64,000 nucleotides of DNA from assembly GCA_001599295.1 (NCBI GenBank), contig BCGN01000004.1:66138-130137 (forward strand), given 5' to 3'. Within the stretch, counting starts at the first letter, position 1; each line of letters begins with the position of its first letter. Position numbers and translations under genes: made by a program. Origin of the DNA: Sporopachydermia quercuum (taxonomy: Eukaryota). This document shows, piece after piece, positions 45,201-54,695 of the stretch. The notes under the pieces were generated by a model that saw only the letters and a list, made by a program, of their open reading frames with translations, was not told where the DNA came from and ran no database searches.

Positions 45201-46680
45201 CTATGAATAAAGATAATCTTCTTCTTCCTCTTCTTCTTCATTGTCATCATCCAGTGATTCGTTCACATTTTGTTCATCTTTGATTTCTGCTTCTGGAGAT
45301 TCTTCTTCTTCCTCTTCCTCTTCACTAACTTCATCATTTTCTTTTTCCTTTTCACTTTCGGACTTCACCTTCATTTTCTGAATCTCGTCAGCTGCTTCTT
45401 CCTCTTCTTCCTCATCATCCTTCTCTTCTTCCCCACCGTCTTCTTCACCGTCGTCCTCTTCACTATTACTATCCTCACTTTCACTGTCGGATTCAGCATA
45501 ATCTTCGTCGTCGTCGTCGTCATCATCATCATCATCATTACTATTACCTGAATCCGCTGACGCAATATCAATGTTGTCACCAGCATCTTCTCCTGTATCG
45601 TCCTTTTTATAACCAGTTTGTTTTAATTGAGGCTTTGCTTGCAACTCTTCACTCAAACTCTTATTATTGAAATCCTTAGCTTGGACATACTCATCGATCT
45701 TCGAGAAATCGTCCTGATCAATCATACTGAATTCAATCTGTTTGCTGTTTTGTTTCTCCTCGTTTCCCTCAGTCGATTCTTTATCTGCTATCTCCAGATT
45801 CAGACTAAATGTTCTTCTGGTGATCGTACTATACACAACTGACCTTATATCAGCGTGCTGAAAATTGAGAATAGGTTTCCGCATACCAAATATTATACAG
45901 CTTGGGAANAAGAACAGGGATCCCTCTCTAGTACCGAAATGAGCACCAGCAAAAAAGGAACTGTTTTTTCCGTCATAGAAACTGGTATCCACTTTAATAT
46001 TAGCCTTCCGAAACTTATCTAAAACAAAGATTTGACAGTTCTTAGATGGTACCGAGGAGTAGGATTTAATGAAAGAAGCTTCAGTCAGCGTAATTACAAC
46101 TGGATTGCTATCGTCATTTCTGAGTAGTATAAGATTGGAGTGTTGTTTAAAATCGGGTACTGGCGTCACTGTCGCTAGGTAAATTGCAGTGTTAACATCA
46201 GGGATATATATTTCAGGCTTGCTGTCAATTGCCTTAGTGCCAGCCAAAGATAGTATATTATTGTTGTTCTTATCAGTAAATAATATCAAATTGAGCTTCT
46301 TCCGTACAGGAGATGTAAAAGTTACATCCTTCAGATGCAGCAGTATTTGATCTTCGGCTTTCATGATTTGTGCTAACGTTTCTGGTGTGGTGACAGCTGC
46401 AGTCGTCGATGAGGAAGAGCCGCTGGACGAACTGTTGAGCTTCCTTTTCTTCCTATCTGCTTCATCCTGCAATGAAAAGTGTTTTATGACATTCTCAAAC
46501 GCTGGCTTAGTTTCAGGATAATTTTCTATTGGAGATGAGCTTCTGTTAGTATTATAAGTGTAGGATTCAACAATTTGACGAAGTTATGTCATCAGCTGTT
46601 AAACTGCAGGAATAGCTCATACTAATGATAGAGTTGACCTCTTCAGCTATCTTAGCTGGGAGTTGTGAAATCAAGGTCAT
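45201..46680 (-). CDS. RTT106: Histone chaperone Rtt106; exons 46680-46623, 46525-45201
   Basis: A GTATGA..TACTAAC..TAG intron gives MTLISQLPAKIAEEVNSIIKNYP. PH-domain motifs 'FTSPVRKKLNL', 'GTREGSL...FGMRKPIL', 'YSTITRRTFSL', 'EFSMIDQ' and an acidic tail follow. Confidence 0.9.
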
Positions 46681-47376: not shown

Positions 47377-50127
47377 ATGACCAATATTAAAGCCGTTATT
47401 AATGGAACAGACAGAAGAGGTATTTGGAGTAAAGCAATTGCCTGTTTAACATCTGTAGGACGAAATATCAGATTTGATGTATCAGAAACTTCAGTAAGTT
47501 AATAGCACATGGCACATTTATGAGCACATTTGCGTGATAGGCGTAAGATACTAGATTTGTACTTTGTGATATAAAATGATTTATTATGGATTTATTTCTA
47601 ACAGAAATAGATTTCTTTGTCAGCTATAAAAGACTCTAGGACATCTTATACTGAAGTTATATTCTATGATACGTATTTCAGTCACTACAATGCCAATATT
47701 GGTGGGAATGCTGATATCTATTCATTCCTGCTCGATGGGAAAGTAAGTACCCAAGAAACTGTTCTCTGGGCAATCACTATAACTTCTAATTTGCTTATTT
47801 TCTTTTATTCTTTTATTCTCTTTTATCCTTCTTTACTAACAATAGGCTAGTCACTGCTTCCACTGTTCAGAAGACTAGAAGGTGTAAAGGATATTGAGAG
47901 TATCATTCTTTCAGTCAACGATACATCAGATGAAGCAGTACCCAATCAACAATCATCAAGAGAACCAACAGCAACAGCAGATCATCAAGAAAACTCTTCA
48001 AATGCTTCCCCAAAATACGATTTGACCATTGAAATCAAATCCATATATGAACTAAAGAAAGTATACTCAATTCCTTACGGTATAAGCCACAACGCACGAA
48101 TGAGAACTAATAAATCGGTTTATAAGAAACGGCAAGAGAAGAGTTTGATTCCCCCTTCAAGTATTGATCCTCGTGATTTGACATTTGAAGATCTGGACTG
48201 CAATTATTTTGTCATTGAAACGTCAACAATAAAAAAGCTGTTGGAAGCATCGTCAAATGCAGTTGAAGAGTTTGGGATTCACTTTACACCGGAGAAGGTT
48301 GTTTTCACTGGCCAAACGAAATCAATCAAATCTGATGATGGAGGTAAGTGCTTTTGAATTAGGAGATATATGATATATGATGAGGAGTGCAGTTGTAGCA
48401 GACAATATGGTATTTGATAGTAATTGAACTGCCGTATCTGTTGATTAGCGGGCTTGGAATGAATGAATTATTACTAACTGAACGATGATTGCATTGTGAC
48501 AGATGTGTTGAAACATCCAATGGGAACAACGATTCGTGTAGATATAAGTGAATTTTTCAATTGTTCAGTTGAGAACGGATCAGGAGTTAAGTTCCAATTA
48601 AAGGATTTCAAGGTATGTTGATCTCTTTGATAAATGTAGATGGTAATATGGTAATTGGTGATAAATGGATGATAATATGTGGCATGACGTTAATTTGGTC
48701 ACCCGACTTGAAGCCTTTGCTGCATGCCTATGGTTGATGGATGTTATCATTAGAAAGGTGCAATAATAAAGGCAAGGGGTTCATAAAATTAAATACAGGA
48801 TTTTGTGCTTTTCAATGCTATGGCCAAGTACAGCAAGTGTTCAGCAAGTGCTCGGTTATTACATTACTACAGCAATCCAAAAGAAATTGGCTCTTGCAGA
48901 GAGAAATAATAACATGAACCATTAGCACCAATGCCGGCATTCTATTGATGCTTTTGTTGAAGTTGACTCAACTTTTTAATGCTTGTTTTCTGCTAGCGTT
49001 AGCCTCAGCATCAGCACTAGATTAGCATTAGCGTTAACATAATTATTACCCTAATCATGGCCATATCATAAGTCAACACCTCTCTGGCATTCATTCTTCT
49101 ATTAACACATCTCAAGACATTTGTTAATATAGTGGTAACATTCTCTAATCTAATGGACGTTTATTATAACCAGCCTAACGAACCAATCTGTTTTGAAATC
49201 AACGATATGGAAAAAGGATTCTTTATGCAGTTGGTTCAAGTGACTGATACTAATGATCATATAGACGTTACTTCTAAAGCTGGTGTGAATAGTATTAATA
49301 GTATTGATAGCTCTAACAGTGTCACCGCTACTTCTGCTGCTAATAGCAGAATTGACATTCATACGACAAGAGGACTGAATCTAGAGAGAATTGAGCCTAA
49401 ACGAAGGAAGTTAAGAGAATTAAGCTCGCCAAAATCTCAATCTCAGTCTCAGTCTCAAGATCAATCTGATACTGAGGAAGAAGATGTTGTCAAAGGCTTG
49501 AATCCTTATAAACCTGCCGACGAGTTGTCTCAATCTGTTGGTAATAATGATGGTAATAATGACGGTGACGATGGTGGTGATACTGATGAAGATAGGAGAA
49601 ATGACAGTACTAACAATAGAATGGAACATCAACAGAATGCGAACAGCACGGAGACGCTCAGAAAAGAAAGCGTAAGACCAGTGAGAAAACAGCAGGAGGA
49701 GTATTCTATCAGTTGGGATTCAGGGCATAGTAATAATAGTAGAAATGGTGATAGTAATAGTACTACCAGTAATAATAATATCAATAATGCCATTGGTAAT
49801 GCCCGACAGACTGGAGCTATTCGCCTACCAATTCTCACTAGACAAAAAGCAAATGTTCAGTCATTTTATAAGAAACAGAATACTAGAAGTAAAAGCAAAG
49901 GAGATGGTAAAGGAGGTAAAGGGAGTTCACCGTATGATGATAATAGAAATAAAAGTAATAATGGTACTGGTGATGATGATAGTAATAGTAATGGTAATAA
50001 TGCTAATATGGTTAATGGAATACCAGAAAATGAAAAGATTGATGATTCTGCTGAAGANAGTACGCAGAGAGATCAAATAGGACCGACCCAGGATATTAAT
50101 AAGCCTAAGGGTGTATTTGATTGGTGA
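47377..50127 (+). CDS. DDC1: 9-1-1 checkpoint clamp subunit Ddc1/Rad9; exons 47377-47493, 47611-47742, 47851-48343, 48503-48612, 49117-50127
   Basis: Four introns join in frame: 'IKAVI...IWSKAIACL', 'VLKHPMGTTI...FQLKDFK', 'YYNQPNEPI', and the C-terminal 'IGPTQ...PKGVFD' typical of Ddc1. Confidence 0.85.
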
Positions 50128-50393: not shown

Positions 50394-51764
50394 CTAAGCA
50401 GTAGGTGCAGGTTTAGGCTAGTATGAGAGGTTAGCAAGAGCTGCAAGTCGCGACTGGTTGTATGCTGGTTTGTAGATAGATCGGAGGTTATGGAATGTGA
50501 ACTCAAATACTTACAGGTTCGGAAGCAGCTGCTACAGCTTGAACTTCATTCTTTTCTTTACCACCGAGGCTGTACGATGTGTTAGTAAAAGAAATGGAAA
50601 AGGAGTGTAAACAAATTGATTGCAAGAGTAGAAGAATACATACTACCAATAGTTGAGCCATCTTGAACCTTGGATTAATTGAGATGTTTCATTGATTGCA
50701 TGACAAGCAAATAATAAAGGATTGACTGGAGTAATAGAGACCCTATGACAGTTAGTATTGGTTTTGAAGTAAAACATAAGAGAATAATACAGGGTGAAAT
50801 GACAGTTAAATAGGGAAGACGCTAAGCAGCTATTAATGAAGCTACNCAGTCATCAACAGTATTTATATCAAATCAGCATGAGTTTCAAATCGTCGCATAC
50901 GAGTATTTCATGAAAACCAAAGAGTAAATGATCAATGAACCTGTCATTGGACCAGAAATCAACTGAGGGTCTTTCTTGATATCATAAATTGCAGCCAAAG
51001 GAATACCAAAATTAGAGACAGGTCCTGATTTGGCTAGTTAGTATTAATGATAGTAGGAAATAAGTGGATGTTTGTCGTGCAATCGGTTATGTTTATTATA
51101 GCAATGGTATAGCAGCGACAGATAGAGCTTTTTGCAGGTTTGAAGAAGTTTATCAGTAGACCTGAATTTGTATCAAAGGAGCATGCTCTCATGATAATAA
51201 TTAATATAAGGTATTCTCAGCTCATAAGTTGTCTCAAACATTGAGTTTACATTTGAATAAGAGTATAGCAAAAAAATACTGATAGCTCTTAATGCCATAT
51301 CGAACCTGTTCTTATCTACTATTGGTATCTTCTCACATATGGTGCCCTATTCCTTTCTTTCACTATCTTGCTGTTTAATATAACCTTTCAAAGAATTTTC
51401 CACAGCTCACCCTCTACCATTGCAATATACAGCTCATCAATTCTCTCACGAACGAAACACTTGTTATTTCAACATACCCCAAAAATGTGTGGAGCAGATG
51501 TCTATCAACAAAAAAAGCACAGAAGAGACATCAGTAGTTAGTAATCAAACTATTAAACTTCTTTTTGAAAGCTAAGCCGTTATTCCTATATTATTATGTA
51601 CATCATTCACATACACCTTGAGCATCTGTTAGTACAACGTCTACCAATCAATTAATTGTACAGTAACATTCAGTTACACTTCAACTCCATGACCAAAAAA
51701 CATACTTCACAAAATCCTTGCTGAATACAAAGTTCTTTGCTTTATTGAAAAACTGTGATGACAT
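50394..51764 (-). CDS. MPC1: Mitochondrial pyruvate carrier Mpc1 (128 aa); coding exons 51764-51706, 51616-51615, 51501-51478, 51024-50901, 50742-50644, 50569-50515, 50417-50394, plus a probable 5'-UTR intron about 52035-51826
   Basis: Spliced product ...[40 protein letters not shown]...FMKYS...[19 protein letters not shown]. All six coding introns have GTATGY/GTAAGT donors and TRCTAAC branches. Confidence 0.93.
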
Positions 51765-52862
51765 TTTGCAGAACTATAGAAGGCAATTGATGGAATTATG
51801 ATATAACTGTCTTGATCCTAAGCTGCTGATGCGGTTAGTAAAGAAAATAAGGATGTGAATGCTAAAGTAAAATTCCTCTGTTGGGTGCATAATGCTTATT
51901 ATTATTTGTGGTAGAATGACAATGGATAATGTTACAAACTAAATGGTGATTATTACACAATCATATCATTCACAAACGAAAATTAAACCAACCACAAAGC
52001 ACAATCATTGAGCAATACAGAAATAACAAACATACCAATTAATTACGCCCTTGAATACTGATATATCTGTGCTCGGTCAATTCATACACTGCACTCTGCG
52101 TTCCTTTTCAACATAGTATAGCTTCGACTACAATATATCAAAAGATACATTTGACTATCTATACCTTGAAAATTGTTCCTTCCCCATATATGTTACATTC
52201 ATCTGGATAAATAAATCATGTTGCAAAACGATTGAGGGGCATTCTTACTACTTTCAAATGTTTGAAGACTATTAGCTTGATAAATTTGTGTTCACATAAT
52301 ATCAATATAGATACTTATTCCGGAAACGATATTCTGGTACTGGTTCTTTTACTCAACATATGATCTCCGTTATTTGTTATCATCTATTCTTTGGCCAAAC
52401 AACCTCCAAGGATAACCAACAACAATATTAACCAGAGTAGCCTGCTTATATCCTGCCATTTTCATTGCAGTGATGTTGTTATGGGATTATTGAACCTATT
52501 AAAGTGATATTGGTACTTTCTGGTTAATTCGACGAACTGAATATGCTCCCAATTCTCAGCTATCATATCCTCTATTCTCAAACCTAATCAGCCATTCTGT
52601 TGTATGATGAGATAGCAAGCTGTATAATTACATTAGAACTACGCTCAACAATTAAACAAGAACGCGGGAGACTACTCAAAGGAATAAGTTATAATCAATA
52701 GACACTTTACTATTAAATAGAGTTAAATCGAACCAGTGAATGTGGAATAGCCCCATCCATAGCAAGCTCATCAACAGCATAACTTTGTCTCTTACTATGC
52801 TACATCACTCCACCGAGTAAATCACAACATCAACAGTACAATTCACGCAAAAAAGATCAACA

Positions 52863-54695
52863 ATGGATCGCGTGTTATCAGTTAAACAATTAGTGGAGAT
52901 TGGAAACAATTATGAATTTGATCCAAAGATTCCCTTTCGAATGTGGATAGAAACAGCCTACAGGGTTCTGATTAAGGTATGCTATGACAAGGCAGACGAG
53001 GAAGTGGATTATTGATTGAGATAGGAATATTACTTGAAGTATCACTAGTTCTTTGGTATTGATTTGCTTAATAAAATTGCTGTCAAAACAGCTATCAGCT
53101 GATAATTACTATATAACAACTTCGTTTCTTGAAATACAGTATTACACAGTTCAATAACTGACTTCCTATCTCTGTTTTCTCTTTATAACCTACTAACATT
53201 AACTATCAGGCTGAAGAACTATTGATTGAAAGATCTTATAGTGAAGCATATATTCTGTTTGCAAGATTCTGTGAGTACGTACTATTGTTAGTTTATTACC
53301 AAGTACTCTATTGTTGATACTGTGGAAAAGGAGAAACTATACCCATAGCACCACAATAGATAAGTATCTGGTGGTTGTAACAGCTACCAAATCTACTGCA
53401 ATCACCAATCATCAACCGAATATGCTTCCTTGTATACATTCTAACATCTATCTAGTCTAGTGTTAAATAAACTACCATCGCATCCTTCGGTTGATTCAGC
53501 GGCTCTCAAAAAACTTGTGAATGTATGGAAACTCATTGCTATCTCTCTTATCTCTTCTATCATGCCCATATACTAACACACTTAGGAACTACCAAATGCC
53601 CTAGCACGTATGGAATTCATCAAGCCTATCATTCAGCATGAATTCAATGAATTCACAAGACACAAGGAAGAACGCAGACGTTTACTCGTGCAAAACATCG
53701 AACAGAGTAAAAAGAAAAAGGAACTTGATGATGCTAGAGAGAAAAGAAGCAAATCACCTTTCAATGCTCAGAGTAATAGGGCTATTGACATTGGAAATAC
53801 GGTTGGATCTGAATTGACAGAATTGAAGAAGCTGCTGTCAAAATTGAATAGACCACTCAATGGCAGTATCCAGAATTCAACTAACACTTCAGTGAATTCG
53901 CGATTTGATTCAAATTCAAATGCCTATCAATACAGAACAGCTAATCAGCTCAACTATCCTACCATTCCTATTTCCCAGCATAATCTATACAATTCTGATG
54001 TTTCTCAGCTATCAATTGATCTTCCTCCTAAGATAAATCTTCCTGGCTTTGCTCCAGACAATAATGTTTCTACTTCATCTACAACCTCCAAGTCTACCGC
54101 ATCCACTGGCAATGTCTACCCTACAAAAGATCAAACGGAAGCAGGAAAGCCTCTGAGGAGCGTATTTATACCAAAACTCTTGAGAGAAAACTTCCTAGCT
54201 TTGGCGAGACCAAATACAAGGAAGAAGATAGAAACCTGTGGTATTCTATGCGGAGTTCTCAACAGAAACGCTTTTTTCATAACTCATTTGGTGATTCCTC
54301 AACAAGACGGTACTTCCGATACTTGCACAACTAGAAACGAAGAAGAACTCTTCGAATTCGTGGACTCCAATGAACTATTTATCATTGGCTGGATCCATAC
54401 CCATCCTACCCAGTCTTGTTTCCTCAGTTCAATTGATATCCATACTCAGAACTCATACCAGATTATGCTTCCGGAAGCTATAGCCATAGTGTGCTCTCCG
54501 CAACATGAACCCAGCTGGGGTATATTCAGGCTTACCGATCCACCAGGTATTGGAATCATTACTAAATGTACTAAGAGTTCGTTCCATCCTCACCCTGAGA
54601 AGAATATATACAAGAATGTGTATATGGGAGATAATACCGGAGGAGTTGTTTTGAGGGACGATGTTCCTTTGAAAGTAAAGGACTTTCGAATATAG
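52863..54695 (+). CDS. AMSH/STAMBP-like JAMM deubiquitinase; exons 52863-52976, 53210-53274, 53456-53522, 53586-54695
   Basis: N-terminal USP8-dimer/MIT-like segment (YEFDPKIPFRMW...DLVLNKLPSHP) and JAMM motif 'ETCGILCG...GWIHTHPTQSCFLSSID'. Confidence 0.9.

Follow-up and report, generated by a model that had tools for sequence, protein, structure and literature searches.

The stretch of DNA analysed here, a 64-kb window taken as a whole, carries on its minus strand a gene that is identified from its sequence as MPC1, encoding mitochondrial pyruvate carrier subunit 1, with five coding introns (Table 1). Exon 4 alone scores 53 bits against the Pfam family PF03650 (MPC; cut-off 27 bits, E 4.5e-14), and exon 5 alone reaches a score slightly below the 27-bit cut-off. 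Exon 4 is 79-90% identical to yeast MPC1 proteins, and its best matches bear the names MPC1 or YGL080W-like. When the coding pieces are joined with the 2-nt exon discussed below, the spliced model encodes a protein of 124 residues, which retains 41 of the 42 columns found to be invariant in an alignment of 17 yeast MPC1 proteins and shows 53-73% identity to them. The Pfam score, the retention of residues conserved among orthologs and the names of the best matches all place the product among MPC1-type proteins.

The product of exon 1 aligns without gaps with the N-termini of the 17 homologues. Introns 3, 4 and 5 were placed by their GTATGT or GTATGC donors, TACTAAC branch-site motifs and YAG acceptors, and after splicing of intron 5 the C-terminal tail reads Tyr-Leu-Gly-Gly-Lys, like the tails of the homologues. 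The intron density of MPC1 is very high for a budding yeast gene. Judging by splice signals, the gene probably has a further intron in its 5'UTR, approximately 60 nt upstream of the ATG, the acceptor of which is uncertain, with several AGs lying 6-21 nt past the branch-site motif and the first of them at 51827-51826. At the other end of the gene, a sixth coding intron is possible from its signals; its removal would swap the last three residues of MPC1 for seven others, in a tail that is not conserved.

Table 1. Positions of MPC1 features and neighbouring genes in the 64-kb window
Feature	Position	Strand	Details
Start codon (ATG)	51764-51762	minus	In-frame TAG four codons upstream
Coding exon 1	51706..51764	minus	ATG start; 19 codons in all plus AA (51707-51706), the first two bases of Lys20
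Intron 1 (89 nt)	51617..51705	minus	GTATGT; TACTAAC 51634-51628; AAG acceptor 51619-51617
Proposed 2-nt exon (GT)	51615..51616	minus	G would complete Lys20 (AA+G), T would begin Tyr21 (T+AC)
Intron 2 (113 nt)	51502..51614	minus	GTATGT; TACTAAC 51543-51537; TAG 51504-51502
Exon 3 (24 nt)	51478..51501	minus	AC + Ile-Cys-Ser-Thr-His-Phe-Trp + G; followed by GTATGT of the third intron
Intron 3 (453 nt)	51025..51477	minus	GTATGT; TACTAAC 51043-51037; CAG acceptor 51027-51025, proximal TAG bypassed
Exon 4	50901..51024	minus	MPC domain core; Pfam PF03650
Intron 4	50743..50900	minus	GTATGC; TACTAAC 50757-50751; TAG; one N near 50846
Exon 5	50644..50742	minus	Pfam PF03650, 25.9 bits
Intron 5	50570..50643	minus	GTATGT; TACTAAC 50587-50581; CAG
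Exon 6	50503..50569	minus	TGA stop 50505-50503
Candidate 5'UTR intron	51826..52035	minus	GTATGT 52035-52030; TACTAAC 51840-51834; splice signals only
Optional sixth coding intron	50418-50514	minus	GTAAGT 50514; TGCTAAC 50436; TAG 50420
JAB/MPN (AMSH-like) deubiquitinase gene	52863-54695	plus	At least two introns: 52977-53209, and another ending at 53585 with TACTAAC at 53571
331-codon open frame	49132-50127	plus	Asn/Asp/Ser/Gly-rich; no Pfam match

The neighbourhood of MPC1 includes a gene for a deubiquitinase of the JAB/MPN type and, just downstream on the opposite strand, a long open frame (Table 1). For the neighbouring eIF2A gene, the best named matches, from Trichomonascus, Nadsonia, Wickerhamomyces and Geotrichum, are about 50% identical, and the DNA is therefore taken to come from an early-branching budding yeast to which nothing annotated in the collections is closely related. 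The window contains 25 isolated N bases, suggesting an assembly with ambiguous base calls; none of them falls within 51478-51764, the segment that extends from the start codon to the end of exon 3.

Splice signals and reading frame around the GT dinucleotide

The first-pass annotation had described, between exon 1 and the 24-nt exon, two introns separated by a GT dinucleotide, each with a donor and a branch point of its own, and had proposed that this GT is an obligatory exon supplying the Lys-Tyr of MPC1. On a reading of the minus strand, its coordinates and anatomy at 51478..51764 prove exact to the base. Each of the two introns has its own 5' splice site (GTATGT), its own branch site (TACTAAC) and its own 3' splice site (AAG in intron 1 and TAG in intron 2), which is the set of signals looked for on either side of an ultra-short exon. 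The AAG of intron 1 lies at an offset of 9 nt from TACTAAC, 12 nt past the branch A, and the favoured model bypasses a CAG that abuts the branch site at 51628-51626. In intron 2, the TAG ending at 51502 is the sole AG downstream of TACTAAC.

Across both strands of the 64-kb window, the pattern TACTAAC-N(5-30)-AG-NN-GTATGT is matched once, by the local string TACTAACAGATGCTCAAGGTGTATGT, and no match was found in any of 100 dinucleotide-preserving shuffles of the window. TACTAAC itself occurs 30 times, against an expectation of 7.85 +/- 2.74, and 6 of its 13 minus-strand copies lie inside the 1.3 kb of MPC1. Because the shuffles yielded no match and the branch-site motif is in excess, a chance origin of the arrangement is excluded.

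To establish what the signals allow, all GT..AG paths leading from the start codon through exon 3 were enumerated. This gives 48 two-intron solutions, and exactly one of them, that with the 2-nt exon, yields the conserved Lys-Tyr junction. All 17 homologues aligned to the 2-nt model are free of gaps at the junction. A wider search returned 106 homologues, of which the 93 with at least 12 residues before HFWGP were judged: the Tyr stands five residues before the His in 89 of them, and 77, for example P0015, have the exact spacing of the window, [STN]K-x3-[KR]Y. The proposal of an obligatory exon made up of the GT at 51616-51615 is thus borne out at the level of sequence, as this is the sole canonical path to the conserved junction. 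Its companion claim, that skipping the GT frameshifts MPC1, also holds, since exon 1 spliced straight to exon 3 runs into a stop 12 codons later; both the reading frame and the conserved residues require inclusion of the two bases. Taken together with the signals, these findings make it very likely that the GT is kept as a constitutive 2-nt exon between two complete, independent introns of 89 and 113 nt.

One signal departs from the pattern of the window. Intron 1 ends in AAG, whereas all nine other introns of the window with an acceptor fixed by frame or homology end in TAG or CAG, and this AAG is probably a weaker 3' splice site.

Some further properties of the segment were looked at. In three minus-strand introns, namely 46525-46622, 51617-51705 and 51502-51614, the donor and TACTAAC start exactly 71 nt apart. 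A derivation of intron 2 from intron 1 by duplication, which this shared distance would fit, was rejected: global alignment of the two gives z = 0.33, the local score of 13.5 falls inside the range of shuffled sequences (mean 11.5, sd 2.1), and MPC1 introns 1 and 2 show no sequence similarity beyond their signals. A special RNA structure at 51764-51478 was likewise rejected (fold z = +1.63, with 193 of 200 shuffles folding at least equally well). The minimum-energy fold places an 8-bp hairpin with three G-U pairs over the 5' splice site of intron 2 (51595-51616, minus strand).

Alternative readings of the junction

With both donors required to match the consensus, only three of the enumerated solutions are left; their internal exons measure 2, 11 and 26 nt, and the choice among them is decided by the homologues. 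In the path with the 11-nt exon, intron 1 would end at the CAG at 51628-51626, which abuts TACTAAC, and the protein would read K-C-S-R-Y. The product is in frame and free of stops, and this principal rival deserves attention in view of Yarrowia lipolytica, whose introns have branch site and 3' splice site juxtaposed, on average 1 nt apart (PMC2911113); the yeast of the window belongs to an early-branching lineage. Against this stands the insertion of three residues at a place where 17 of 17 aligned homologues are gapless and 77 of 93 have the exact spacing of the window. In addition, the window itself argues against the use of AGs so close to the branch site, as those lying 0-3 nt past TACTAAC are bypassed in all three introns in which frame or homology allows a decision. 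In MPC1 intron 3, the proximal TAG at offset 1 would put three residues into HFWGP, whereas the CAG at offset 10 restores the motif, and the latter is taken as the acceptor used because HFWGP is invariant. In the intron at 46622 of an Rtt106-like gene, offsets 0 and 3 lead to stops at residues 23-24 and offset 17 opens 460 codons; in a plus-strand intron at 47743, offset 3 leads to a stop and offset 8 stays open for the 188 codons of the test construct. The offsets taken as used in the window range from 6 to 33 nt past TACTAAC, and no window intron with an acceptor fixed by frame or homology has one below 6. The first-pass annotation had itself set the upstream CAG, with its K-C-S-R-Y product, against the 2-nt exon; that alternative depends on a branch-abutting AG of the very kind passed over in the three testable introns, and it is judged very unlikely. 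The 26-nt exon calls for an upstream, non-consensus branch site combined with the TAG at 51643-51641. Although its product is in frame and without a stop, TACTAAC would become exonic, so that a perfect branch-site motif would lie inside an exon, and the eight added residues are seen in no homologue; we regard this path as scarcely credible.

The two introns could also be replaced by a single one. Only one in-frame GT..AG intron exists that keeps the frame open, and it requires exon 1 to continue to 51686, a GTTGAA donor at 51685 and the TAG at 51502, which adds six residues absent from the homologues. A gene model of this kind is what an automatic predictor would build. Its donor is off consensus, the other introns of the window beginning with GTATGT, GTAAGT or GTATGC, and a perfect TACTAAC, an AAG and two GTATGT motifs would be left without explanation, which makes it highly improbable. 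A non-canonical AT..AG intron spanning 51703-51502, with no microexon, would produce a mature mRNA identical to that with the GT exon, so that the mRNA alone cannot separate the two. However, the internal TACTAAC-N9-AG-NN-GTATGT would then be a coincidence, although the motif is matched in none of the 100 whole-window shuffles, and all other introns inferred in the window begin with GT; its probability is put close to nil. A different kind of objection is that the structure is not productively expressed, whether as a decaying copy, as an assembly error, or with exon 1 mostly joined to exon 3 and the transcript degraded. The 25 isolated N bases, the unusual AAG acceptor and the room for a second, simpler MPC1 copy outside the 64-kb window analysed speak in its favour, whereas the six coding pieces are all open and in phase, 41 of 42 invariant residues are kept, every splice signal is intact and 51478-51764 is free of N. 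We give this objection only a slight chance of being correct.

Intron removal and known ultra-short exons

Under the favoured model of a GT exon, two complete spliceosomal introns, each with a consensus 5' splice site and branch site, would be removed separately and the GT would stay behind. Counted upstream from the 5' splice site of intron 2, the 3' splice site of intron 1 comes after 2 nt and the branch A of intron 1 after 15 nt. In view of what is generally known of spliceosome footprints, simultaneous occupation of both introns by two spliceosomes is not plausible at such spacing, and we infer that they are removed one after the other. Removal of intron 1 first would leave ...AAGT/GTATGT (the slash marking the remaining splice site), and removal of intron 2 first would leave ...CAAG/GTAC. 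Either order would be workable and would give the same product, because the signals of the other intron stay intact in both cases. In the productive mRNA, AA+G would then be read as Lys20 and T+AC as Tyr21. The skipping of the GT, with exon 1 joined to exon 3 in a frameshifted mRNA, could conceivably tune pyruvate import, or act on it as the on/off switch suggested in the first-pass annotation, a possible role that is unsupported.

Two terms had been attached to this splicing beforehand. The description 'stwintron-like' does not apply as a claim of membership. In the stwintrons of fungi, including Lipomyces, one of the splice elements of an external intron is split by a second intron lying within it, and no base is left behind (PMC7138796, PMC12403724). 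The MPC1 arrangement would share with them two consecutive reactions on adjoining intron units, and abutting splice sites occur in early-branching yeasts, whereas here the donors, branch sites and acceptors of both introns are complete before splicing and 2 nt would be left in the product. The description 'recursive-like', in the sense of a ratchet point, also falls away, as the sites are 2 nt apart rather than abutting. Splicing would create a GTGTAT there, which does not match the donor consensus and the use of which would frameshift MPC1.

Exons of 1-2 nt are already known in plants and mushrooms, and the yeast MPC1 exon would add one more case. Long reads revealed exons of 1-3 nt in Coprinopsis cinerea, among them 57 that measure 2 nt, distributed over 50 genes, and 13 that consist of a single nucleotide (PMC12230235). 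These exons are likewise fungal and their omission breaks gene models (PMC12230235), but C. cinerea, a basidiomycete, is rich in introns and its splice signals are degenerate, and the passages of that report concerned with such exons do not mention an MPC1 case. In Arabidopsis, APC11 contains an experimentally verified single-nucleotide exon (Guo and Liu 2015, PMC4674806). The APC11 exon resembles the one proposed here in being constitutive, shorter than a codon and indispensable to the reading frame, and in having been mis-annotated in APC11; it differs in its length of 1 nt, its plant host and its gene family. Among budding yeasts, Y. lipolytica YALI0E34170g has a 4-nt internal exon, supported by two cDNAs and the shortest of that genome (Mekouar et al. 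2010, PMC2911113). The likeness lies in an internal exon of extreme shortness in both budding yeasts, whereas the exon has 4 nt there versus a proposed 2 here, and Yarrowia fuses the branch site with the 3' splice site, which the yeast of the window does not. YALI0E34170g was considered as an MPC1 gene and set aside, the MPC1 of Y. lipolytica being YALI0F00264p. If confirmed, the GT exon would be shorter than this 4-nt Yarrowia exon, the shortest internal exon that we found reported for a budding yeast (PMC2911113); a literature search, with most subscription journals outside its reach, brought up no budding-yeast exon reported to be 3 nt or shorter.

A closer parallel by gene family is found in human MPC1, whose exon 2 is a constitutive 4-bp microexon, TACG (Koh, Shin and Kim 2023, PMC9929638). 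Splicing persists when this microexon is cut to 2, 1 or 0 bp, and separate lariats were obtained for the 4-bp and 0-bp constructs (PMC9929638). The human and yeast exons belong to the same gene family, lie in the N-terminal coding part and have lengths that are not multiples of three, so that inclusion is obligatory in both; the human exon, however, is embedded in long introns with distant branch points and exon-definition signals, whereas the yeast exon is flanked by short introns with strict GTATGT and TACTAAC. A solved MPC1 chain, which we take to be human, aligns without gaps to P0015. If TACG encodes a Tyr followed by the G of a Val codon, a placement deduced from the protein, it fits Tyr12-Val13, eight residues upstream of the Tyr that matches the yeast one, which speaks against an identical position. 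By sequence, the human and yeast microexons thus seem to be independent.

The spliceosome is best understood, in structure and kinetics, in Saccharomyces cerevisiae. If confirmed, the GT exon would offer, in a context of S. cerevisiae-like signals, a clean natural test of how closely a 5' splice site can follow a 3' splice site, and of which of the two introns is removed first.

The Lys-Tyr junction in other yeasts

Comparative evidence was drawn from nucleotide loci and from public protein models. Of 81 fetched MPC1 loci, 80 come from metagenome contigs and one from a mis-binned genome contig, and no intron at the Tyr site was found in the 79 that could be read there. The Tyr codon is uninterrupted in all 79: in 30 the sequence continues without a break through this codon, and the other 49 are instead interrupted within the His codon by an intron. 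The latter 49 loci look to us like those of filamentous ascomycetes.

The protein models present a different kind of record. Around the Lys/Arg-Tyr junction, MPC1 models from Lipomycetaceae, Babjeviella, Sugiyamaella and others are truncated, extended or devoid of the HFWGP exon (P0002, P0003, P0006, P0007, P0010, P0026, P0032, P0056, P0057, P0061, P0230, P0237, P0239 and P0242). The Lipomyces models P0026, P0056, P0057 and P0061 are irregular at the junction, and eight further MPC1 protein models begin at or shortly before it. For a Myxozyma model, P0013, a plain frameshift within the 24-nt exon was considered, an explanation that found no support once the codons had been worked through. MPC1 is probably mis-annotated in many early-branching yeasts. 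Exons such as the 2-nt GT are beyond the reach of gene predictors, and it is at this same junction that the public MPC1 models of several early-branching yeasts fail.

A more specific pattern is displayed by seven protein models in which an Asp replaces the Tyr directly before [VIL]-[CF]-[ST]-T-HFWGP and is preceded by unrelated sequence, namely P0006 (Kockiozyma suomiensis), P0242 (Lipomyces kononenkoae), P0232, P0234, P0050/P0054, P0053 and P0082, the last three entries representing three further lineages. P0232 and P0234 are Logan-derived members of the Yarrowia MPC1 cluster and read TNTD, corresponding to ACT AAC ACA G/AC. An Asp in place of the Tyr is what would be expected from read-through of an AG/AC acceptor (G+AC = Asp), and these apparently mis-built models suggest that a phase-1 intron in the Tyr codon is probably shared with other early-branching yeasts. 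A further step would be to regard the GT exon as old, with a phase-2 intron in the Lys/Arg codon and a phase-1 intron in the Tyr codon having coexisted since before the split from the Lipomycetaceae, and with the exon conserved across early-branching budding yeasts and systematically mis-annotated there; we put this forward tentatively and consider it rather unlikely as a whole. If the exon were old, it would provide a natural substrate on which to study how a spliceosome working by intron definition, with strict yeast signals, deals with two introns that it cannot occupy at the same time.

The Kockiozyma model P0006 (KYVFFFDRAFPKRRRDVCSTHFWGP) bears on the donor side of the junction as well. 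After the Lys it continues with KYVFFF, which matches read-through of an AA/GTATGT donor and hence the donor phase seen upstream in the window, the window's own read-through being KYVFW. Joining a phase-2 donor to a phase-1 acceptor takes two additional bases, so that an exon like that of the window may exist in Kockiozyma, and this one protein model is suggestive of a 2-nt exon in the MPC1 of K. suomiensis.
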